The notes under the pieces are model-generated. The model had not been told where the DNA came from. It did no database searches and saw nothing but the letters and a program-made list of their open reading frames with translations. Positions 42,769 to 63,840 of a stretch of DNA of 64,000 nt are shown here, in pieces. Positions within the stretch are counted from its first letter, which is position 1, and each line of letters starts with the position of its first letter. The position numbers were made by a program, and so were the translations under genes. Location of the stretch: the sequence record NC_042128.1. The stretch is one strand, 5' to 3'. This stretch comes from Escherichia phage RCS47.

Positions 42769-43626
42769 ATGACCACTATAACCAAAGAGCGACTGCTGAC
42801 AATCAAGCAGTGGCGCGAAACATACGGACCTGATAGCAACGTTGTACTGCCAGCAGAAGAAGCGGAAGAACTGGCGCGTATCGTGCTGGCATCGCTGGAA
42901 GCAGAGCCTGTTCTGTATCAGTCCTGCACTCGCCCCACCTGGAATAGCGGTGTTCCGTGGACGGAATGGAAAGAACGTAGTCGTGAGTGCTACGAAGACG
43001 ATTTGCGTTTTACAGACACGCCTGACCATGCCGGTTGGATATACAAATGTCGAAAACTATATACCACTCCGCCAGCGCCGATAGCGTTAGAGGCCATTGA
43101 AAACGCAATTGAATACATTCGTAGTATCGCTTTTCACATCGATGAAGACGATTACCACGGCAAACATATTGCGTATTTCATGCGACAAGCATTGGCCTGG
43201 CTGGAAGGGCATTCATGCAGCGACGACAGACTGGGTAAAGCCGACAATCAACCAGTACGCGGCAACCAGGCTGCCGAATCCAATCGCGGTAATGAGTGGA
43301 CCGGCAATCCTGATATTGATAACGCAATCATCATGCTCGACCGCATAGATACGGCGGAAAGTTACGATGATGACCGTATTGAGGCTGTTAAGGCTGTTTT
43401 GCGTAGACTGGCAGGCAACTCTCCGGTAACTCCGGATGGTTGGATAAGCTGTAGTGAGCGAATGCCCCCTCAAGATGATTGGATTTTAATTTATTCAAAG
43501 CACGGCGAGTATATGGCAGGACAGGTACAAGGGGAATACGTGGAGTTGAGCGACGGCACTTTATCGTGGTTAGGGAACGCCTTGTTCTGGATGCCGCTAC
43601 CAGAACCGCCGCAGGAGGCGAAATGA
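42769..43626 (+). CDS. hypothetical protein
   Basis: 285-aa ORF ending WMPLPEPPQEAK. Confidence 0.45.
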   Translation: MTTITKERLLTIKQWRETYGPDSNVVLPAEEAEELARIVLASLEAEPVLYQSCTRPTWNSGVPWTEWKERSRECYEDDLRFTDTPDHAGWIYKCRKLYTTPPAPIALEAIENAIEYIRSIAFHIDEDDYHGKHIAYFMRQALAWLEGHSCSDDRLGKADNQPVRGNQAAESNRGNEWTGNPDIDNAIIMLDRIDTAESYDDDRIEAVKAVLRRLAGNSPVTPDGWISCSERMPPQDDWILIYSKHGEYMAGQVQGEYVELSDGTLSWLGNALFWMPLPEPPQEAK

Positions 43627-43883
43627 TGGATGTAAAAGAGAAGGTTTTGCAGGTGATGCGTTCCCGGGCTGCCCTGCAAGATAAAGCTCTCGGCGGGGAA
43701 TATCCATTCAGGATGGCAACCTGGAATCTGCGGTTGGCAATGGAGAAGGCATTTCCTGATGAAGAATGGCGTTCGGCAGATTTGCGCAAAATTCTTATGG
43801 AGCTGGCTAAAGACGGAACAGTATCCAAAGATACCCATGCCAGCCGGATTGGTCAGGCGGTATGGAGACTGGAGGTGAGGTAA
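43623..43883 (+). CDS. hypothetical protein
   Basis: ATGA overlap with upstream stop; 86 aa. Confidence 0.4.
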   Translation: MMDVKEKVLQVMRSRAALQDKALGGEYPFRMATWNLRLAMEKAFPDEEWRSADLRKILMELAKDGTVSKDTHASRIGQAVWRLEVR

Positions 43884-44164
43884 TGGCTAACCTGCAACTT
43901 GCCGTTAAAGGTGAATACTTCGATGCCATGATTCGCGGGGAGAAAACGGAAGAGTATCGCCTGTGTAATGACTACTGGAATAAGCGCCTCGTTAACCGTA
44001 AGTATTACCGCCTGATTATCACAAAGGGATATCCGAAGCGCGAAGACTTCAGTCGCAGAATTGACGTCCCGTATAACGGATATGAAATAAAAACAATCAC
44101 ACATCCACACTTCGGTGATAAACCGGTAAAGGTGTTCGCGATAAAAGTGAAGATTAATAGCTAA
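43883..44164 (+). CDS. ASCH-like small protein
   Basis: TAATG overlap; motif GEKTEEYR; 93 aa. Confidence 0.4.
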   Translation: MANLQLAVKGEYFDAMIRGEKTEEYRLCNDYWNKRLVNRKYYRLIITKGYPKREDFSRRIDVPYNGYEIKTITHPHFGDKPVKVFAIKVKINS

Positions 44165-44187
44165 ATTTCAATTAACACGGAGTAATT

Positions 44188-44481
44188 ATGTGGCGCGGTA
44201 ATAATCATGGCGGAAGTCAGATGATACTTACCGAATATACGTTCGACCACAAAACCAATAAATCACGTTCAGTATATTTGCTTCGGCACAATAGCCGCGT
44301 AAGAAATACCGTTCTGGAGCAAAATCTGATCGTTGAAATGGATAATTTGGGAAACTTCAAGCCAACAATATCGCTTGATGATTTTCCGTGTGGTTTAAGC
44401 GAAAGAGAAGCAATGCTGAAATTAGCAGAATGGCTACAAAGATTAAGCATTGCTATTGAAGATAACTGGTCTGAACCTTAA
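44188..44481 (+). CDS. hypothetical protein
   Basis: 97-aa ORF. Confidence 0.35.
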   Translation: MWRGNNHGGSQMILTEYTFDHKTNKSRSVYLLRHNSRVRNTVLEQNLIVEMDNLGNFKPTISLDDFPCGLSEREAMLKLAEWLQRLSIAIEDNWSEP

Positions 44482-44487
44482 ATTAAT

Positions 44488-44862
44488 ATGATGACACTAA
44501 AACATTTTCTTGACCGCCCATTATGGGCGGCAGCCGCAGGCTATGACTTTAATTATATGGATTGCATGTCTTATACTGCCAATGCATACGACCATTCGTT
44601 CAGCCTGCTGTTTAATTCTTTAAGAATATTGCCGGAAACAGAAGTTGGAGAGCTTCATTTATGGATATTGGGCTTTATCGCGGCTGGAGTTGGTATTGCC
44701 GTATGGCCTTTTATTTTCTGGCTGGTGGCTGTTGTAGTGTGGTTTAAGTGCAAGACGTACCGGAAAAAGTATTTCTTAGGTGATGGAATGACTGATATTG
44801 CCAAAATGAACATTGAAAAATGGACTAAGGAATGTGAAAAGAAATGGCGCAAAAAGAAATGA
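44488..44862 (+). CDS. membrane protein
   Basis: 124 aa with two hydrophobic segments. Confidence 0.4.
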   Translation: MMTLKHFLDRPLWAAAAGYDFNYMDCMSYTANAYDHSFSLLFNSLRILPETEVGELHLWILGFIAAGVGIAVWPFIFWLVAVVVWFKCKTYRKKYFLGDGMTDIAKMNIEKWTKECEKKWRKKK

Positions 44863-45524
44863 CTACTCTAACGACAGCATACTTACAGCAATTGGTATTT
44901 TTTGCAGGCGAGGCTACTTGTCATCCTGACGCAAACTATTTATTGGAATTTGAGAGGTTAGCGTCACCCGGTATCGTTCTGGAACTGGCCCAACAGGTGC
45001 TGGCCTTGAGACAAAAAGAGCAACATGAAAGTAATACGTGTAGATTGAATTTTGAGCAGTGGCTGGAACAGCAACGCGGAAAAATCGATGTGGACTGCGG
45101 TTGTGTGTCCACTGAAACATTCATGCACTGGCTGTGGGTAGCTTACGAGGCTGGCAACTATCCGGATATTCCGGATAGTTCGGTGCCAGCGCCAGGAAAG
45201 GGCGTCACCGGTGAACGTATCCGCATTAAGCCGCATGTTTATCGCGAACTGGTTAACCGTCTCCACGATACAGCGATCAAGTGTGCTGGCACCCAGCAAT
45301 TACGAGAAAGAATTAGCCGTGTTTTGGGCGACGTTATTACACCAGATCATCATAAACAAGCCGAGAAAAGTGACCTGGAAAGGTGTCACCTTGAGGCGGC
45401 ATTAAACATTAAGCCGGGGCATACGCTTGGCATTATTGATGCACTATTGGTTCATAAGATGGCCAGGGCTTTATTGCCGCTGGTGGCTGAAAAGCATGAG
45501 GTGGACCATGCCAACGAAAGCTGA
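44844..45524 (+). CDS. hypothetical protein
   Basis: 226-aa ORF. Confidence 0.4.
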   Translation: MAQKEMTTLTTAYLQQLVFFAGEATCHPDANYLLEFERLASPGIVLELAQQVLALRQKEQHESNTCRLNFEQWLEQQRGKIDVDCGCVSTETFMHWLWVAYEAGNYPDIPDSSVPAPGKGVTGERIRIKPHVYRELVNRLHDTAIKCAGTQQLRERISRVLGDVITPDHHKQAEKSDLERCHLEAALNIKPGHTLGIIDALLVHKMARALLPLVAEKHEVDHANES

Positions 45525-45792
45525 ATTACAGGTGCGCGTAGATGAGCTTGAAAAAGAGAACGCGAGCCTCAAAAAAATGCTGTCGCGGGCGGAAAGGGAA
45601 TTATCAGGCAAATTATTGCCAGAAGAACTGCCACCAGCAGATATACCTGATCGAGTGTCCTGGTGGATGAAGTATTTCCGTGCACCGTGGGAGGCGTTTT
45701 GGTGCTACGACCATCGCAGATGGTGTGATGAACTTGATAGCAATTTTCCCTACTTTGCGGAAGGGAACACCTGCCCTCAATGCAGGGGATAG
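45508..45792 (+). CDS. hypothetical protein with C-terminal CPQC motif
   Basis: ATG 45508 with GGTGG SD; 94 aa. Confidence 0.4.
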   Translation: MPTKAELQVRVDELEKENASLKKMLSRAERELSGKLLPEELPPADIPDRVSWWMKYFRAPWEAFWCYDHRRWCDELDSNFPYFAEGNTCPQCRG

Positions 45793-46159
45793 CATTTGAC
45801 GAAATCGATCACCCTATCCTGAACTTCAGAAAGAAGGTCTTTTTCACGCGCCAGGACGTCAGGATATTGACGTTCTGGCCTTACCAGATGCCGGAGCTTC
45901 CCATTAAGCAGAATGGCCTCAGAAAACACTTTTACGCTGTGCTTTATCCCCTCTGTTTCACTTTTCAGCGTCAAAATAAAGCGCAATTGCTTATTAGCCT
46001 GATTCGGATTCAATACACGAATTTGCAGTTCGTCTATGCTGTTCCGCAATGGGATTGATGCCACCACACTGGTGCAGTCTCTGATTGTCTGAATTGAACG
46101 GCTAACATTGAGAACGTTATTGTGCATGTGCCTGATCCACTAACTCCTGGAGGTTTCTT

Positions 46160-46411
46160 GTGTCAGATCGAAATATAGCAGCTAAAAGCCAGGAAGAGCG
46201 AGACAAGGTGAACGTAGACCTTGCCGCCAGCGGCGTTGCTTACAAAGAACGGCTGAATATACCTGTGATTGCAGAGCAGGTGGCCCGTGAGCAACCGGAA
46301 AACCTGCGCGCCTATTTCATGGAACGGCTACGGCACTACCGGCAGTTAAGCCTCCAGTTGCCAAAAGGGAGCGATCCGGTGTATCAGAACGAGGATGCAC
46401 CAAAAAAATAA
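46160..46411 (+). CDS. hot: DNA polymerase III theta-subunit homolog (HolE-like)
   Basis: GTG start with GGAGG SD; motif [33 protein letters not shown] resembles theta. Confidence 0.75.
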
Positions 46412-46496
46412 CGGCAAGATGGGGGAGAAATGTGATTAGCCCCCAGCGTGGCGCGCCTACAAACCCCGCTTTCACAAACTATGCCTTTTCAATGTA

Positions 46497-46516
46497 TACT
46501 GTATGAATAAACAGTA
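46497..46516 (+). promoter_or_regulatory. LexA (SOS) box TACTGTATGAATAAACAGTA upstream of humD
   Basis: CTGT-N8-ACAG consensus match. Confidence 0.8.
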
Positions 46517-46534
46517 TCATTGAGGTAAAACGCT

Positions 46535-46924
46535 ATGGGCTTCCCTTCTCCTGCGGCGGATTATGTTGAAAGCCGAATTTCTCTTGATCAGCAGATAATT
46601 AGACATCCTTCAGCGACCTACTTCATGCGGGCAGCTGATAGCCATCACCGTGAGGGAATATTGCAGGGTGCTTTGCTGGTGGTTGATTCCTCGCTTACTC
46701 CAGTTGATGGTTCGCTGCTTGTGTGCGCTATGGAGGGTGAATATCGCATAAAGAGATACCGAAAGTATCCGCGCCAGCACCTGGAGGATTTAAGCACCGG
46801 GAAGAAAGAGGCGTTACCAGTAGATGACGATGGATGCACGGGCAGTAATGCTATTTTTGGTGTGATCACTCATGTCATCAATGATGCCCGAAGTGGGGAA
46901 TTTGATGATTGTCCGGTTATTTAA
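46535..46924 (+). CDS. humD: UmuD homolog (SOS mutagenesis accessory)
   Basis: 129 aa; UmuD'-like peptidase S24 core; LexA box upstream. Confidence 0.8.
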   Translation: MGFPSPAADYVESRISLDQQIIRHPSATYFMRAADSHHREGILQGALLVVDSSLTPVDGSLLVCAMEGEYRIKRYRKYPRQHLEDLSTGKKEALPVDDDGCTGSNAIFGVITHVINDARSGEFDDCPVI

Positions 46925-53882: not shown

Positions 53883-54734
53883 TTATTGCGCGCTTTCGGG
53901 GTTGTCGTTTACTGGCTGCCCCTTCTTGGTTTTACGGCTGCGCGTAACTGATGCGGCTGACTTAACCTTTTTCTCTTCGCGAGTGATGGCAATTTGTTTT
54001 TTTACATTTTCAATATCTGCCAGGCGATATATTTTTGCTTGCGGCCAGCGGTCGCAGATGATCGGTTCTATGGAGTCATAAAGGCTAAATTTTGCTTTTT
54101 CGAATTCACCGTTGATGATAATTCCATCACGGAGAGTTTCATCGCAGATAAACACGCCACACAGTGGCACATGGTAACTAACTGATTTACCATCATTGTA
54201 GTTAGGGCTACTGGAAATGTAGTGGACGCGCAGCATTGTTTCGCTAAAGCCGTGTACGCGCATACGGAATTTTTCATCCTCCGGGTACTGCTTCATTAGC
54301 TCTTTTGTTGCTTCAAGGTTCTCTATGTATTTCGCACTGTGCTCATTGATCCCTGCGCTTTTTTGGATGCGAATGTCCTTATCAATCAGATGAATAATGC
54401 GGCCAGCGGTCATGTTGACGCTGTTCACAGCTTCTGTCTGATAAGTCGTAACCTTACGCACACCGCGAAGGATGTTAGGCACAGGATATAAAATAGTCTT
54501 TGGGATATTGAGGTCTGGGTACTGTTCCAGTTCCCGCGCCATTAAAGTCCATTTATCAATTTCAGCCTGAATGCTGTCTGTTTCTTTGAACGGTAGAACG
54601 ACAACCGGGCGTACAGGACGACCGTCGCTGGCTGTATCAACGTGTTGGGCGCGTGCAACAGCTTTTTTCAGAAAGAGATCCCTGAAGCTGACGAACTCCT
54701 GGTACAGTTGTTCGCCGTAGACATAATTTATCAT
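53883..54734 (-). CDS. c1: C1 repressor of lysis
   Basis: 283 aa; operator sites matching ATTGCTCTAATAAATTT throughout the window; position next to coi and lox. Confidence 0.8.
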   Translation of the reverse strand: MINYVYGEQLYQEFVSFRDLFLKKAVARAQHVDTASDGRPVRPVVVLPFKETDSIQAEIDKWTLMARELEQYPDLNIPKTILYPVPNILRGVRKVTTYQTEAVNSVNMTAGRIIHLIDKDIRIQKSAGINEHSAKYIENLEATKELMKQYPEDEKFRMRVHGFSETMLRVHYISSSPNYNDGKSVSYHVPLCGVFICDETLRDGIIINGEFEKAKFSLYDSIEPIICDRWPQAKIYRLADIENVKKQIAITREEKKVKSAASVTRSRKTKKGQPVNDNPESAQ

Positions 54735-54845: not shown

Positions 54846-55054
54846 TATTGTGAGTCTAACTGGTTAGTTGCCATGAGATATTCGATTGTGTCAGTGAGGT
54901 CATCCAGGTCATCTTGGGTGATGCGGTACTCCTGATTGGATATCTTTGAGTAGTGTTCAGCAATGGCGCGGGCTGCGTCGGTTTCGGCAGGGTCTACAGA
55001 TAAAGCGTTAGAGCAATGTCTAACGTCGTCGATGGTTGGTTGAATGAAAGCCAT
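54845..55054 (-). CDS. coi: C1 inactivator Coi
   Basis: 69-aa acidic ORF immediately upstream of c1. Confidence 0.65.
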   Translation of the reverse strand: MAFIQPTIDDVRHCSNALSVDPAETDAARAIAEHYSKISNQEYRITQDDLDDLTDTIEYLMATNQLDSQ

Positions 55055-55196
55055 AATTATGCCTCACTGTATTGACAACACAGAGCCTGAAGCTCTGACC
55101 TACTGTTTCACCCATGATCCATGCTGGGGTAATCTAACAACATTGCGCTGTGTGTAAGATGAGCAATGCATAGGGAAGGTGCGAACAAGTTCCTGA

Positions 55197-56222
<1,026 letters not shown>

Positions 56223-56321
56223 AAACCGGAAATAACGCCAGAAATGGTGGAAAAAATAGCCTAAACAGGCTGATTCGATGTGTTTGCGGGAAAAAAATCG
56301 GCCCAGCTCCGCGAAATTTTA

Positions 56322-57090
56322 GGTAATGACTCCAACTTATTGATAGTGTTTTATGTTCAGATAATGCCCGATGACTTTGTCATGCAGCTCCACCGATTTT
56401 GAGAACGACAGCGACTTCCGTCCCAGCCGTGCCAGGTGCTGCCTCAGATTCAGGTTATGCCGCTCAATTCGCTGCGTATATCGCTTGCTGATTACGTGCA
56501 GCTTTCCCTTCAGGCGGGATTCATACAGCGGCCAGCCATCCGTCATCCATATCACCACGTCAAAGGGTGACAGCAGGCTCATAAGACGCCCCAGCGTCGC
56601 CATAGTGCGTTCACCGAATACGTGCGCAACAACCGTCTTCCGGAGCCTGTCATACGCGTAAAACAGCCAGCGCTGGCGCGATTTAGCCCCGACGTATCCC
56701 CACTGTTCGTCCATTTCCGCGCAGACGATGACGTCACTGCCCGGCTGTATGCGCGAGGTTACCGACTGCGGCCTGAGTTTTTTTAAATGGCGGAAAATCG
56801 TGTTGAGGCCAACGCCCATAATGCGGGCGGTTGCCCGGCATCCAACGCCATTCATGGCCATATCAATGATTTTCTGGTGCGTACCGGGTTGAGAAGCGGT
56901 GTAAGTGAACTGCAGTTGCCATGTTTTACGGCAGTGAGAGCAGAGATAGCGCTGATGTCCGGCGGTGCTTTTGCCGTTACGCACCACCCCGTCAGTAGCT
57001 GAACAGGAGGGACAGCTGATAGAAACAGAAGCCACTGGAGCACCTCAAAAACACCATCATACACTAAATCAGTAAGTTGGCATCATCACC
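56322..57090 (-). mobile_element. IS1 element (769 bp) nested in the right end of IS5 copy 1
   Basis: IS1 terminal IRs GGTAATGACTCCAACTTATTGAT...ATCAGTAAGTTGGCATCATCACC; 8-bp target duplication AAATTTTA (56314-56321 and 57091-57098). Confidence 0.9.
56337..57035 (-). CDS. insAB: IS1 transposase, fused InsAB' encoded without frameshift
   Basis: continuous 232-aa ORF; A-run is A7 (plus-strand T7 at 56778-56784) where I recall A6C in canonical IS1. Confidence 0.85.
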
Positions 57091-57209
57091 AAATTTTAAT
57101 CAGCGAGTCAACTTGGGAAGAAATGACCTGCTTATTCGCACCTTCCTTAGATTAACGCTGCGTGATATTTAATCTCAAATGATAATAAAGATGCGTTATC
57201 ATTTACATT

Positions 57210-57223
57210 TTGATAATGATCAC
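57210..57223 (+). promoter_or_regulatory. FNR-like box TTGATAATGATCAC upstream of the reductase operon
   Basis: 9/10 match to TTGAT-N4-ATCAA in AT-rich promoter region. Confidence 0.45.
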
Positions 57224-57352
57224 AAATATTTATATTTGTGCTAAGCACCAAATCTCACTTGATCATAATCAATAATGATGAATTACTAATTCTTTATGAT
57301 TACCTCATATGTCGTATTAATAATAATTATGAAAACAATGTGAGAAAATAAA

Positions 57353-59788
57353 ATGAAAGAGTTGTTAAATACAACAATCTCTCGACGTGATGCGGTGACT
57401 ACAACTGCAAAATTGGGAGCTGCCGTTGCACTAAGCAACGCCATCACTTTGCCTTTTTCCACAACCGTCAGGGCCGAAACATCGGATACCGGTAAAACCA
57501 ACGAAAATGCTGAAACCGTCAGGCATAGTGCTTGCCTGGTGAATTGCGGAAGTCGTTGTCCATTAAAAGTTATCGTAAAAGACGGACGCATTGTTCGTAT
57601 TGAAGCCGAGGACGCGAAGGACGACTCTGTTTTTGGTGAACATCAGATTCGACCTTGCCTACGTGGTCGTTCCAGCCGCTGGCGTGTTTATAGCCCTGAC
57701 CGGATTAAATATCCGATGAAACGTGTTGGTAAACGCGGAGAAGGGAAATTTAAACGTATTTCATGGGATGAGGCCACAGCCTTTATTGCCGCTGAATTAA
57801 AGCGCGTTTCTGAAAAATATGGAAATGAAGCAATCTATTTTAATTATCAATCTGGCGCGTATTATCATAACCAAGGAACACCCGCATGGAAAAGGTTATT
57901 GAACCTGAATGGCGGTTTTCTGCAGTATTACAATAATTACTCAAACGCTCAAAACTTTACCGCCACATCTTACACGTATGGTGCTACAGGAGTACAGTTT
58001 GCCAGTCATTTTAGCCAGATTGCGCATTCTGATCTTGTGGTTTTTTTTGGTCTGAATTTATCTGAGACTCGGATGTCCGGTGGTGGGCAAGTTGAAGAAC
58101 TGCGCCGTGCGCTGGAAATATCAGGCGCCCGGGTGATTATCATCGATCCGCGCTATACAGACTCTGTTGTTACAGAACATGCTGAATGGTTACCAATTCG
58201 CCCTACAACCGATGCTGCACTGGTAGCAGCTATTGCACACACGTTGATAAAAGAAAATCTGATCGACGAAGAACGAGTCAATACTTATTGTGTCGGTTAT
58301 GATCGTAGCACCCTTCCGGAAACGGCGAAACCAAATGCCAGTTATAAAGACTATGTTCTGGGTAACGGTGATGACGGCGTCGAAAAAACACCTGAATGGG
58401 CGGCAGATATCTGTGGCATCCCGGCTATTCGTATTCGCCAGTTGGCACGTGAAATGGCCGAAGCTCGGGCCTGTTTCATTGCCCAGGGATGGGGGCCACA
58501 GCGTCATGCAAATGGTGAACAGACTTCCAGAGCGGTTCAGATACTTCCTGCCCTGACGGGTCATTTTGGATTGCCAGGAACCAACAATGGGAACTGGACA
58601 TACGGAACACCTTATGGTGTTCCTGCTCTGCCGATTGGTGAAAATCCCGTTAAGGTGTCAATCCCCTGCTATCTGTGGACAGATGCGATTCAAAGTCCGG
58701 AAAAAATGACAGCCACCACTATGGGGGTTAAAGGCGCGGATAAACTGAAAACCGGTATTAAACTGTTCTTCAACCAGGCCGGGAATGCACTTCTGAATCA
58801 ACATGGAAATATCAATCGTACACGCAAAATACTTGAAGATGACAGCCTGTGCGAAACTATCGTGGTTATTGATAATCATATGACTGCCAGTGCCCGCTTT
58901 GCCGATATCCTTCTTCCAGAAACTAGCTACTTAGAAGCCGAGGATCTGGTGGACAGTTCCTATGCAGCCGGTTCTCACCATTACATGATTGCAATGCAAA
59001 AAACGATCACACCGATGTGGGAAGTACGCAGTACCTATGATATCTGTGCAGATATTGCGGGGCATCTTGGGGTAAGAGAGCGTTTTACTGAGGGGCGTAC
59101 TCAGGCAGAGTGGATGGCGAAGCATTACGGACAAGTTAAAGAGAAGCGATCATATCTGCCTGAATGGGAAGTTGCAATGAATATGGGGGTTATCGATCAG
59201 CAAGGTACTCGTGATGAGGACAGTATTATCCTTGCTGATTTCCGCCATGATCCGGTTGCCAGTCCACTGACGACACCTTCCGGGAAGATTGAGATTTACT
59301 CGCACACTCTGGCGGAACTGGCTAAAGCCTGGACACTACCGGAAGGAGATCGCATTCCGGCTGTTCCTGAATTTTGTATAGTGACAGAGTCCCATCTGAA
59401 CAAGAGTCTGACAGCAAAGTATCCGCTACAGATGAGCGGTTTTCACACCAAAGGTCACACGCACTCAACATATGCCAGTGTGCTGATGCTGCATGAAGCG
59501 GTACCGGATGAAGTCTGGATCAACCCGATAGACGCCAGCGTGCGTCAGTTGAAATCAGGCGATATGGTCCATGTATTCAACGATCGCGGTGTGGTGGAGA
59601 TCCCCTGCAAGGTGACACAGCGCATCCTGCCGGGCGTGGTGGCAATGCCGCAAGGCGCGTGGACCCGACTGGACAGCAACGGTGTGGACGTGGGTGGATG
59701 TATTAACACATTGACCAGCCACCTGCCGTCGCCGCTGGCGAAAGGGAACCCGCAACATACCAACCTGGTTGAAATCAAACGCGCTTAG
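57353..59788 (+). CDS. DMSO-reductase-family molybdoenzyme catalytic subunit (DmsA/YnfE-like)
   Basis: 811 aa; RR signal region; Fe-S motif CLVNCGSRCP; conserved MGD-enzyme blocks and C-terminal LAKGNPQHTNLVEI. Confidence 0.9.
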   Translation: MKELLNTTISRRDAVTTTAKLGAAVALSNAITLPFSTTVRAETSDTGKTNENAETVRHSACLVNCGSRCPLKVIVKDGRIVRIEAEDAKDDSVFGEHQIRPCLRGRSSRWRVYSPDRIKYPMKRVGKRGEGKFKRISWDEATAFIAAELKRVSEKYGNEAIYFNYQSGAYYHNQGTPAWKRLLNLNGGFLQYYNNYSNAQNFTATSYTYGATGVQFASHFSQIAHSDLVVFFGLNLSETRMSGGGQVEELRRALEISGARVIIIDPRYTDSVVTEHAEWLPIRPTTDAALVAAIAHTLIKENLIDEERVNTYCVGYDRSTLPETAKPNASYKDYVLGNGDDGVEKTPEWAADICGIPAIRIRQLAREMAEARACFIAQGWGPQRHANGEQTSRAVQILPALTGHFGLPGTNNGNWTYGTPYGVPALPIGENPVKVSIPCYLWTDAIQSPEKMTATTMGVKGADKLKTGIKLFFNQAGNALLNQHGNINRTRKILEDDSLCETIVVIDNHMTASARFADILLPETSYLEAEDLVDSSYAAGSHHYMIAMQKTITPMWEVRSTYDICADIAGHLGVRERFTEGRTQAEWMAKHYGQVKEKRSYLPEWEVAMNMGVIDQQGTRDEDSIILADFRHDPVASPLTTPSGKIEIYSHTLAELAKAWTLPEGDRIPAVPEFCIVTESHLNKSLTAKYPLQMSGFHTKGHTHSTYASVLMLHEAVPDEVWINPIDASVRQLKSGDMVHVFNDRGVVEIPCKVTQRILPGVVAMPQGAWTRLDSNGVDVGGCINTLTSHLPSPLAKGNPQHTNLVEIKRA

Positions 59789-59801
59789 GGAGTGATCCGC
59801 A

Positions 59802-60428
59802 ATGAAACAGTATGGTTTTTACGTTGACTCCTCGCGTTGCTCTGGCTGCAAAACCTGCCAGGTAAGCTGCAAGGATAATAAAGATTTGGATGTCGGACCG
59901 AAGCTGCGCCGCGTGTATGAATATGGTGGCGGTAGCTGGGTGAAAGAAGGTGAAAGCTGGCACAACAATACCTTCACTTACTATTTGTCGATTGCCTGCA
60001 ATCACTGCGATGAACCGACCTGTGTGGCAGGTTGCCCAACCGGCGCGATGCACAAACGCGAAGAAGATGGCCTGGTGCTGGTGGATGACAGTGTTTGTGT
60101 GGGCTGTCGTTACTGCGAAATGCGCTGCCCTTATGGTGCACCGCAGTTTGATACACAAGCTAAAGTGATGCGTAAGTGTGATGGTTGCCTTGACCGACTG
60201 GAGAAAAATCTCCCGCCTATTTGTGTTGAGTCCTGTCCACAGCGAGCTTTGGATTTTGGTCCTATCGACGAATTGCGGGCGAAATATGGCAGTGAAAATG
60301 AAATCGCACCGTTACCTGCCGCTTCGTTTACGCATCCTAACCTGATAATTAAACCGCATCCGCTGGCGCGACCTACGGGCGACAAAGAAGGGGCGATCAT
60401 GAACATTCGGGAGGTGCGCCATGCATGA
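59802..60428 (+). CDS. DMSO-reductase-family Fe-S subunit (DmsB-like)
   Basis: four Cys clusters; N-terminus MKQYGFYVDSSRCSGCKTCQVSCKD typical of DmsB. Confidence 0.9.
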   Translation: MKQYGFYVDSSRCSGCKTCQVSCKDNKDLDVGPKLRRVYEYGGGSWVKEGESWHNNTFTYYLSIACNHCDEPTCVAGCPTGAMHKREEDGLVLVDDSVCVGCRYCEMRCPYGAPQFDTQAKVMRKCDGCLDRLEKNLPPICVESCPQRALDFGPIDELRAKYGSENEIAPLPAASFTHPNLIIKPHPLARPTGDKEGAIMNIREVRHA

Positions 60429-61197
60429 GTTACCACTGGTCTTTTTCACCGTATTTACCCAGAGCGCAGTGGGGGCGTTTATTCTGCTGCTGATTGGCGG
60501 TGCCATGGGATTAATTGAGCCACGTCGTATGGCGATTGGTCTCTTTTCGGTGATGTGCTTGTTTGGTGTGGGTGTTGTGCTTGGCACCATTCATGTCGGG
60601 CAGCCGCTGCGAGCGCTGAATATGCTATTCCGTGTCGGCAGTTCTCCTATGAGTAACGAAATCGTGCTTTCGGCATGTTTTGCCGCAGCCGGAGGACTGG
60701 GATCTCTCGGTTTGCTGTTAAATCGCGGTGGTGCAATGCTTTGTAAAGTACTGGTATGGCTGGCCGCTGCGATTGGAGTCGTGTTTATCTTTGCCATCCC
60801 GCGTATTTACCAGTTGGCAACGGTAGCGACCTGGAGTACCTCTTACACCACCATGATGATGGTGCTAACTGCACTTATCGGTGGCGGCATGTTGGCGGCG
60901 TTGTTTGGCGTTCGTCGTCTGGGGCTGCTGGTAAGTGTACTGGCGATTCTGGCGAGTTTCTGTTTGCGTCCGGGTTATATTTCCACGCTAATGAGTGCTG
61001 ATGGCGTTATTACCGCTGCGCAGTCCACCTGGTTTACCGCTCAGGCCATTCTGTTGGCGCTGGGTGTTATTGGGGCACTGCTCTATGCACGCATGAAAAG
61101 TGGGCAAGCTGTGCTGGCGATGACTGCACTGGTGGTTATTGCTGCTGAACTGGTTGGTCGGATCGGTTTCTACAACCTCTGGACCATCCCTATGTAA
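60421..61197 (+). CDS. DMSO-reductase-family membrane anchor subunit (DmsC-like)
   Basis: 258 aa polytopic membrane protein, overlapping B subunit stop. Confidence 0.8.
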   Translation: MHELPLVFFTVFTQSAVGAFILLLIGGAMGLIEPRRMAIGLFSVMCLFGVGVVLGTIHVGQPLRALNMLFRVGSSPMSNEIVLSACFAAAGGLGSLGLLLNRGGAMLCKVLVWLAAAIGVVFIFAIPRIYQLATVATWSTSYTTMMMVLTALIGGGMLAALFGVRRLGLLVSVLAILASFCLRPGYISTLMSADGVITAAQSTWFTAQAILLALGVIGALLYARMKSGQAVLAMTALVVIAAELVGRIGFYNLWTIPM

Positions 61198-61251
61198 CCT
61201 GTGAGTGGCCGGTGTTTGCCCGGCCACCTCTGCTTTCAGGAGTGTTTAATC

Positions 61252-61848
61252 ATGCCTTCCCCAGCCGTACTGGTGCGTATTCTTGGTGCCCTGTTTTACT
61301 ATTCTCCCACGCGTCCTGAAGTTCGGGCACTGTTTGACTGTCTGCCGACATTGGATGAGATATACCCCTGGCGCGATCCCCGCCAGGTGGCTGAATTATG
61401 CTCTGACTGGTCAATCCCGGATGAGGAGCAGCATCTCTGGCAATTTTCTGTTCTTTTTGAAGGACAGGGTGAAATGCCAGCACCACCCTGGGGTTCGGTA
61501 TATCTCGAAAAAGATAATCTGTTGATGGGGGACAGCACTGCCGAGTACCGGAAGTTCCTTCGTGATCAGGGAATGACGTTTGATTCCTGTATAAATGAAC
61601 CGGAAGATCAGTTTGGCCTGATGCTGCTTGCCTGTAGCGCCTTGCTGGCAGAGGGGAAAGAACGCGCAGCGAATCAATTGCTGGAAACGCATTTGCTGCC
61701 GTGGGGATATCGTTATCTGGAGTTATTACAGCGCAACCCTGTCAGTGCGTTTTACGCGAAGTTGGCGCAGATTGCGACACTGTTTCTGCAGGATTATCAG
61801 CAGCAACAGGCACTAAATCCTCCAACCAAACGGCTCTTTCTTGGATGA
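61252..61848 (+). CDS. dmsD: Tat proofreading chaperone DmsD/TorD family
   Basis: ATG 61252 with AGGAG SD; motifs LGALFYY and PPWGSVYL. Confidence 0.8.
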   Translation: MPSPAVLVRILGALFYYSPTRPEVRALFDCLPTLDEIYPWRDPRQVAELCSDWSIPDEEQHLWQFSVLFEGQGEMPAPPWGSVYLEKDNLLMGDSTAEYRKFLRDQGMTFDSCINEPEDQFGLMLLACSALLAEGKERAANQLLETHLLPWGYRYLELLQRNPVSAFYAKLAQIATLFLQDYQQQQALNPPTKRLFLG

Positions 61849-62375
61849 GTAAGTCAGAAAATTATTATCAGGAGTTAATGTCTCATCGGTATGTTAGCCG
61901 ACGTGGGCTATTTCGGGCCTTTGTCAGCGCGGCACGCCCGGTAACAACACCGATATTACCTGTGCACTCCTTACCTCCCGGCGCGTTACCTGATGCGCAG
62001 TTTCGTGTGCAGTGCACGCAGTGTGATTTGTGTATTAATGCCTGTCCCATGGGCATTCTCAACCGGCATGAAGATGGCTATCCGCAATTGGTGATTGAAT
62101 TTGCCAGTTGTGACGGCTGCGGCTTATGTATAGCTGCATGTTCCACTGAGGCATTACGTCCGCAGGCTCGTTTCGACACCGGATTGCGTCCCGTTTTTAA
62201 AGCAAATTGTGTTAATCCGGTGCGCAGTTGCAAACAGTGTGTCGATCTATGCCCACTTCAGGCATGCTCAATCAACGAAAGCGGAATGCCTGTAATCGAT
62301 GCTGCAATATGTAATGGTTGCGGTGAATGTTTGGTTCAGTGTGGTTATGACGCGGTAAAACTTGAGATGGTGTGA
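61845..62375 (+). CDS. ferredoxin-type protein with four 4Fe-4S motifs (NapF-like)
   Basis: ATGA overlap with dmsD; four C-x2-C-x2-C-x3-CP-type clusters. Confidence 0.75.
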   Translation: MSKSENYYQELMSHRYVSRRGLFRAFVSAARPVTTPILPVHSLPPGALPDAQFRVQCTQCDLCINACPMGILNRHEDGYPQLVIEFASCDGCGLCIAACSTEALRPQARFDTGLRPVFKANCVNPVRSCKQCVDLCPLQACSINESGMPVIDAAICNGCGECLVQCGYDAVKLEMV

Positions 62376-62521
62376 GGGGCAGGGTGGAACACTCTTTGCG
62401 TTAACAGATTTCACTTGATGACCTGGAAATTATTATTTCCATGAATAAGTATTCTTATCCGCATGGAAAATATGCGCACAATTATCCTGCGATAATAATG
62501 AAAATCATCTGCTTTTTTTAG

Positions 62522-63717
<1,196 letters not shown>

Positions 63718-63840
63718 ATAGCTGTAATGCCGTTGTATAAGGTTTCCCTGTTTGCTCATTTCCTTCTGAGCCGCTCTACAACGCTGAAGACACATTAAAT
63801 AGTGAATCCAAAGTCGTATTACGTAACGGCGGCAAAACTA

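Follow-up and report, generated by a model that had tools for sequence, protein, structure and literature searches.

A seven-adenine run places insA and insB' of an IS1 copy in one reading frame in the phage-plasmid record RCS47

The stretch of DNA analysed here, referred to below as the window, covers 64,000 nucleotides of Escherichia phage RCS47 (NC_042128.1) and belongs to a P1-like phage-plasmid. A P1-type c1 repressor gene on the minus strand (53883..54734) marks the replicon as such, and it is accompanied by coi, by terminase genes and by three plus-strand tRNA genes located between 25056 and 27285, which are of the Asn-GTT (25056-25131), Thr-TGT (25134-25209) and Met/Ile-CAT (27210-27285) types. 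The set resembles the tRNA genes of phage P1. The c1 gene contains five single-nucleotide differences (54315, 54354, 54447, 54483 and 54579), all of them synonymous, that fall within 265 bp and are private to the RCS47 record when six sister plasmids are compared; the cluster has the appearance of a short patch acquired by recombination or of a separate c1 allele. Two segments of the window, 20743-35391 and 40758-46915, have no counterpart in CP098963.1, the closest plasmid examined. In CP098963.1, the gap that corresponds to 40758-46915 is occupied by a type I restriction-modification system (hsdRSM), so the accessory content of the window differs there.

Beyond c1, at higher coordinates, two directly repeated copies of ISKpn26, an insertion sequence of the IS5 family, are found on the plus strand at 55174..57146 and 62522..63717. 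Between them lies a DMSO/selenate-reductase-type operon (57353..62375, plus strand), assigned from its ORFs and from the annotation of the homologous region of CP098963.1, and the two copies flank this dms-type operon in the fashion of a composite transposon. The 4-bp flanks of the pair match outer to outer (ATAG/ATAG) and inner to inner (TTAG/TTAG; 55170-55173, 57147-57150, 62518-62521 and 63718-63721), but the two flanks of any single copy differ. Such an arrangement would be expected if a unit of IS plus cargo had become linked, through recombination or cointegration, to an ISKpn26 that was already resident, and it does not fit two independent ISKpn26 insertions.

The first ISKpn26 copy is interrupted, 48 bp from its right end, by an IS1 of 769 bp on the minus strand (56322..57090), which is the only IS1 in the window, and the second, of 1196 bp, is uninterrupted and provides an empty-site reference. 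The IS1 lies downstream of the ISKpn26 transposase ORF (55242-56222, plus strand, 326 aa), which remains intact, and it is bordered by an 8-bp target-site duplication, AAATTTTA, with one copy on the left (56314..56321) and another on the right (57091..57098). The same octamer is present once in the second ISKpn26, at 63662, and when the IS1 and one duplicate are taken out of the first, 1196 bp are left, of which 1195 match the second. The original prediction, made from the letters of the window, had described a 769-bp IS1 in the right end of the first IS5 copy, with an 8-bp duplication of a site that is single in the second copy, and this arrangement is confirmed. The host element was correctly placed in the IS5 family, but its precise isoform is ISKpn26, according to the RefSeq annotation of the matching copies in sister plasmids. 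A search of the region 55000-57500 against Rfam gave no match at E-values up to 1.

Members of the IS1 family can be recognised by imperfect terminal repeats of about 23 bp that start with GGT(G/A)ATG, by a length of about 768 bp together with near-identity to reference IS1 DNA, by a transposase that combines an InsA-type zinc ribbon with an HTH and the IS1 DDE domain, and by a target-site duplication of 8 or 9 bp (PMC12903888). All of these features are found at 56322-57090. The left, insA-proximal inverted repeat, GGTGATGATGCCAACTTACTGAT, is located at 57068..57090 on the minus strand, and the right one, GGTAATGACTCCAACTTATTGAT, at 56322..56344 on the plus strand. The element begins with GGTAATGACTCC... 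at 56322 and ends with the reverse complement of GGTGATGATGCC... at 57090, and its two ends agree at 19 of their first 23 positions. Common E. coli IS1B copies match 768 of the 769 positions, the sole difference being one extra A, and the element can be described as an IS1 of the IS1B/IS1R type with one additional base. With that base removed, the resulting A6 form differs from R100 IS1 at only 1 of 768 positions (position 8 of the left repeat, C in R100 and A here) and from K-12 IS1A and IS1E at eight. Copies of the A6 form that are otherwise identical are present in many E. coli chromosomes and plasmids, where RefSeq labels them "IS1-like element IS1B" with a programmed frameshift. The variant at position 8 of the left repeat (57083 in the window; GGTGATGATGCC here and GGTGATGCTGCC in R100 and K-12 IS1) is common to all the sister copies and to many E. 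coli IS1B copies. Outside the A run, the element is unremarkable.

The extra base lies in the slippery site, where a run of seven adenines (56778..56784, minus strand, T7 on the plus strand) replaces the canonical A6 of the A6C motif and the coding strand reads CAT TTA AAA AAA CTC. An uninterrupted ORF of 232 aa with a GTG start (56337..57035, minus strand) runs across this site as an in-frame insA-B'-insB fusion, i.e., as the transposase InsAB'. The ORF scores 243.8 bits against the NCBIfam profile NF033558 "IS1 family transposase", for which the cut-off is 100, and its zinc domain is detected by NF050000; for the identical protein, Pfam domains PF03811, PF12759 and PF03400 are on record. In the normal A6 layout, the 232-aa InsAB' results from slippage by -1 at A AAA AAC, and the ORF of the A7 copy equals, residue for residue, the -1 frameshift product computed for the A6 form. 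Deletion of one A in silico restores the classical layout, in which insA stops after 91 codons (...FRHLKNSGRSR*), and the computed A5 and A8 versions of the run lead to dead-end proteins of 99 and 100 aa, respectively.

Because the extra A puts insA and insB' in one frame, ordinary translation of the sequence as recorded yields InsAB', and the InsA frame is not the default product. The two-ORF organisation of the family, in which insA and insB' are joined by a -1 frameshift at A6C, is absent from the A7 copy, and the property that characterises the high-activity mutants, namely a continuous reading frame for InsAB' whose product equals the frameshift protein, is present in it. On the letters of the record, the A7 copy still belongs to the IS1 family and departs from it by one base, through mutation or miscall. 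Nor is it a new kind of IS1, as the same 232-aa protein already has a RefSeq entry, WP_001390281.1. A T7 tract at 56778-56784, a continuous minus-strand ORF of 232 aa and a fusion made by ordinary translation had all been predicted, together with a canonical A6C site in IS1, and each of these points proved correct: the reference is not naturally fused, and R100, K-12 IS1A and IS1E, and the orthologous copies at this locus are all A6. The further claim that the InsA-only inhibitor is lost stands in part; the 91-aa InsA frame is not normally read from this copy, but this holds only in cis, as other IS1 copies could supply InsA.

The A7 reading frame places the heptamer A_AAA_AAA at the run, and this heptamer is a known -1 slippery motif that is used in IS elements (PMC4066793). 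For this reason, it is conceivable that a minor product of 100 aa, keeping InsA residues 1-85, could still arise from the A7 copy. Seven-A runs are under-represented in E. coli genes, with transcriptional slippage or high indel rates as a possible cause (PMC4066793), and the A_AAA_AAA of RCS47 may be subject to slippage in translation, transcription or replication.

Several known IS1 copies can be set beside this one. R100 IS1 (IS1R) and IS1B have the same inverted repeats, 8-bp duplication, InsA zinc-finger/HTH and DDE domains, and the A7 copy differs from R100 in its extra A, in the fusion of its ORFs without the need for a frameshift and in position 8 of the left repeat. The K-12 copies IS1A and IS1E, described as "consensus" transposition-competent copies (PMC12428005), share its architecture at about 99% identity; they are distinguished from it by the extra A and by eight substitutions, of which three lie just upstream of the run (CGTCACTTA vs. 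CGCCATTTA). The closest functional counterparts are engineered mutants, i.e., the in-frame IS1 of Sekine and Ohtsubo 1989 as cited in PMC12065110, IS1E.fs GA2GA3C (PMC12428005, PMC12903888) and inPOSE (PMC8875745), for which the consequence is the same, namely the production of InsAB' by ordinary translation, with InsA no longer the main product. The construct of the Saier laboratory breaks up the A run (GAAGAAAC) and cannot slip, whereas in RCS47 the run is lengthened to A7. In addition, the laboratory mutants were engineered, while the A7 copy, natural or artefact, sits on a phage-plasmid.

These mutants give an indication of what an in-frame IS1 can do. An engineered in-frame copy in the chromosome increases transposition about 900- to 1000-fold, a gain that is mostly undone when InsA is provided in trans (PMC12428005, PMC12903888). 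The IS1 transposase acts mainly in cis, although it mobilises other copies when it is abundant (PMC12903888). In-frame IS1 has been used as "a high-activity mutant" (PMC12065110, which cites Sekine and Ohtsubo 1989), and the single-frame insAB' serves as a tool in inPOSE (PMC8875745). Moreover, a negative correlation has been reported between the resident IS1 copy number and new transpositions of the IS1 of an incoming plasmid (bioRxiv 10.1101/2024.03.01.582297). Most E. coli carry IS1, and in the IS1-bearing genomes, we found a median of about 10 to 11 matching places, so the A7 copy would usually meet InsA from other copies. The prediction of a potentially hyperactive variant is reasonable in the light of the engineered in-frame IS1, but the effect itself is already known, and the extra base is private and may be a miscall. 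In the literature searched, we found no description of a natural hyperactive IS1 or of a natural A7 IS1.

The history of the insertion can be followed in related plasmids. Other plasmids share the nest of IS1 in ISKpn26 down to its junctions; we found at least 20, in E. coli and E. fergusonii, with origins in Laos, Ecuador, France, the UK and the USA. Their full-length matches are 4999-5000 nt long, compared with 5001 nt in RCS47, and a programmed frameshift is annotated for their IS1. When six of these sister plasmids were aligned with RCS47, all six had A6, and the extra T at 56778 was the sole indel; compared with the two closest aligned sisters, it is the sole difference of any kind within the 1,973-bp nest. 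The same is seen with CP098963.1 (99.77% identity), in which the IS1 run is the sole indel over 10.5 kb. Another plasmid, pLR-64-1, is matched over 85% of the query and has no IS1 listed, and it would fit an empty-site relative. The nest is old and shared across the plasmid lineage, and the extra A is private to the RCS47 record. As it is common in this lineage, we do not regard the nest as unusual in its own right. The region is colinear with its relatives, and compared with the sisters, no IS1-mediated deletion or rearrangement was found beside the A7 copy.

To place the run in a wider context, we carried out a census of run lengths in public databases using probes of 79-81 nt around the run, the A7 probe being 81 nt long and centred on it. 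With the 81-nt probe, about 70,000 places were found in about 9,170 (9,174) IS1-bearing complete E. coli genome records. Exact A7 was present in 6 of these records, and eight records fell in the band of at least 99% identity, while the A5 control probe found 69 E. coli records, which makes A5 about ten times commoner than A7 (69 vs. 6-8 records). At least one E. coli record, SCU-482 (NZ_CP053247.1), has an A8 run. Among plasmids, PLSDB contains seven with exact A7 and six with A8, and this similar frequency would not be expected if both arose by slippage in a single step. Noisy assemblies could account for it, or A7 could be removed by selection or by slipping again. Neither the GTDB species representatives (one genome per species, with 42 A6 stretches) nor IMG/VR nor the JGI metagenomes yielded any A7. 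The run-length variants A5, A7 and A8 occur at about 1e-4 to 1e-3 per copy in "complete" genomes.

The six E. coli records with A7 correspond to unrelated loci, on the chromosomes of L37, SC516 and SCU-313 and on the plasmids pKY1497_3, p50EVA-1 and pR2-2L. The A7 copies recorded under WP_001390281.1 (L37, SC516, pKY1497_3 and p50EVA-1) share with RCS47 the 81-nt context, the A7 run and the protein, but they occupy different insertion sites, represent independent events, and none has the ISKpn26 nest. In the flanks of the A7 loci examined, there is no second A7 copy, and the neighbouring IS1 copies are A5 or A6. The lineage of pKY1497_3, which comprises IS1-blaCMY plasmids, has A7 in one record compared with at least 24 sisters that are A6 and otherwise identical. 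In the two lineages checked, that of RCS47 and that of pKY1497_3, we found no case of inherited A7.

Annotation is a poor guide to the length of the run. For instance, PGAP labels some A5 copies (four loci) as "programmed frameshift" with a joined CDS of 697 nt, and some A5 copies share the protein accession WP_169062229.1 with the A7 copy of SCU-313; with A5 and A7 copies under one accession, annotation alone hides the run length. A related effect is seen with the protein. A large protein collection lists the exact 232-aa sequence on 294 contigs, and RefSeq holds a MULTISPECIES entry for it, but among the 10 contigs inspected, 7 are A6 DNA with an annotated slippage product and 3 are true A7, so the figure of 294 overstates the number of A7 copies. 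At least one of these three has a name prefix that we take to be that of the NCTC long-read assemblies. Separately, assemblies of Streptomyces, Nocardia, Rhodococcus, Kocuria, Mycolicibacterium, Metabacillus and others contain very small contigs with exact 35-mers of IS1 (15 loci). The names of several of these contigs give a coverage of only about 0.4-0.95x, and in such species-representative genomes, they are almost certainly contamination with E. coli or cloning-host DNA.

We consider it most likely, at roughly an even chance, that RCS47 carries a standard IS1 in which a real and recent extra A, arising by replication slippage, leads to the constitutive production of InsAB'. The quality of the surrounding sequence speaks for this reading. 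Among the homopolymers of the window, none of the 87 runs of at least 6 nt gains a longer ORF when its length is changed by one base in either direction, and 33 of the 34 runs aligned to CP098963.1 have equal length, with the IS1 run as the sole exception. The other differences between RCS47 and its relatives also look biological; in particular, all five private SNPs in c1 are synonymous, which indicates true divergence. Furthermore, by a rough estimate based on E. coli mutation-accumulation rates, real terminal-branch indels in a 6-nt run would be expected at a frequency near the observed 1e-4 per copy. Less favourable to this reading are the lack of any inherited A7 in the two lineages checked and the colinearity of the region with its relatives, which shows no trace of IS1-mediated rearrangement.

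Almost as probable is the explanation that the extra A is a homopolymer error of sequencing or assembly in a repeated element and that the real plasmid has an A6C IS1 with a programmed frameshift. A one-base homopolymer difference in a multi-copy repeat is a classic residue of long-read sequencing that short-read polishing misses, and the extra A has just this form, i.e., a private single-base indel in comparison with the six aligned sisters, with the other full-length matches also shorter than the 5001-nt query. Public assemblies show run-length variants in both directions (A5, A7 and A8, at the counts given above), and different lengths are mixed in a single assembly or study, such as A5 and A7 in L37, A5 and A8 in SCU-482, and A7, A7 and A8 in MN86865x. 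Some carriers of A7 are noisy: L37 has A5, A6-type frameshifted and A7 IS1 copies together, and pR2-2L has many frameshifted genes, including repA, pemK and IS26. The A7 of pKY1497_3 is also unique among its sisters, and the absence of A7 from the GTDB species representatives, IMG/VR and the JGI metagenomes points in the same direction. Against an error stands the lack of other homopolymer damage in the window described above.

A more speculative proposal, to which we would give only a small chance, is that the A6C run also acts as a mutational switch at the level of DNA, with rare replication slips from A6 to A7 generating short-lived "jackpot" IS1 copies that produce transposase constitutively and start bursts of transposition. 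Under such a scheme, A7 copies would then disappear, revert or fall silent after another slip, to A8 or A5, and a phage-plasmid could deliver an A7 copy to hosts without resident InsA, where derepression would be full. The sporadic and always private A7 records, as well as the plasmid A8 count (6) that nearly equals that of A7 (7), would in that case be traces of the process and not noise. Finally, a distinct natural isoform or lineage of IS1 with a permanently fused ORF and a normal, tolerated activity, like the single-ORF members of the family, might be suggested by the 294 contigs and the MULTISPECIES entry for the exact protein, but it is very improbable and largely refuted, as most of the contigs inspected are A6 DNA, the orthologous copies of the same insertion are A6, the six E. 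coli A7 copies lie at unrelated loci with A5 or A6 neighbours in the flanks examined, the DNA is otherwise identical to common A6 copies, and the fused ORF is not conserved among copies or relatives.

Returning to a real and recent mutation, the events would be as follows. A standard IS1 of the IS1B/IS1R type would have been inherited within the older IS1-in-ISKpn26 nest on a P1-like phage-plasmid, and recent replication slippage would have added one A to its A6C run in the RCS47 record alone. With insA and insB' fused, ordinary translation would produce the InsAB' that the wild type makes through a rare -1 frameshift, and the 91-aa InsA, a repressor and inhibitor, would no longer be the main product of this copy. 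The A7 copy would then be the natural equivalent of the "high-activity" IS1 mutants made in the laboratory. We infer from those mutants that transposition should be raised, mainly in cis, and damped by InsA from other IS1 copies in the host. Thus, a moderate rise would be expected in a typical host, and the strongest one after transfer to a host free of IS1.

The consequence of an in-frame IS1 has been understood since the discovery of the frameshift and is routinely exploited in engineered strains, and the present finding adds an instance and not a principle. Annotations of unframeshifted 232-aa IS1 transposases should be checked against the reads before they are interpreted. Should the extra A be real, the IS1 of this phage-plasmid is self-activated and could give rise to more insertions, deletions and composite transposons in its host, above all where other IS1 copies are missing, and it would provide a natural example of how one homopolymer slip may remove both layers of IS1 control.
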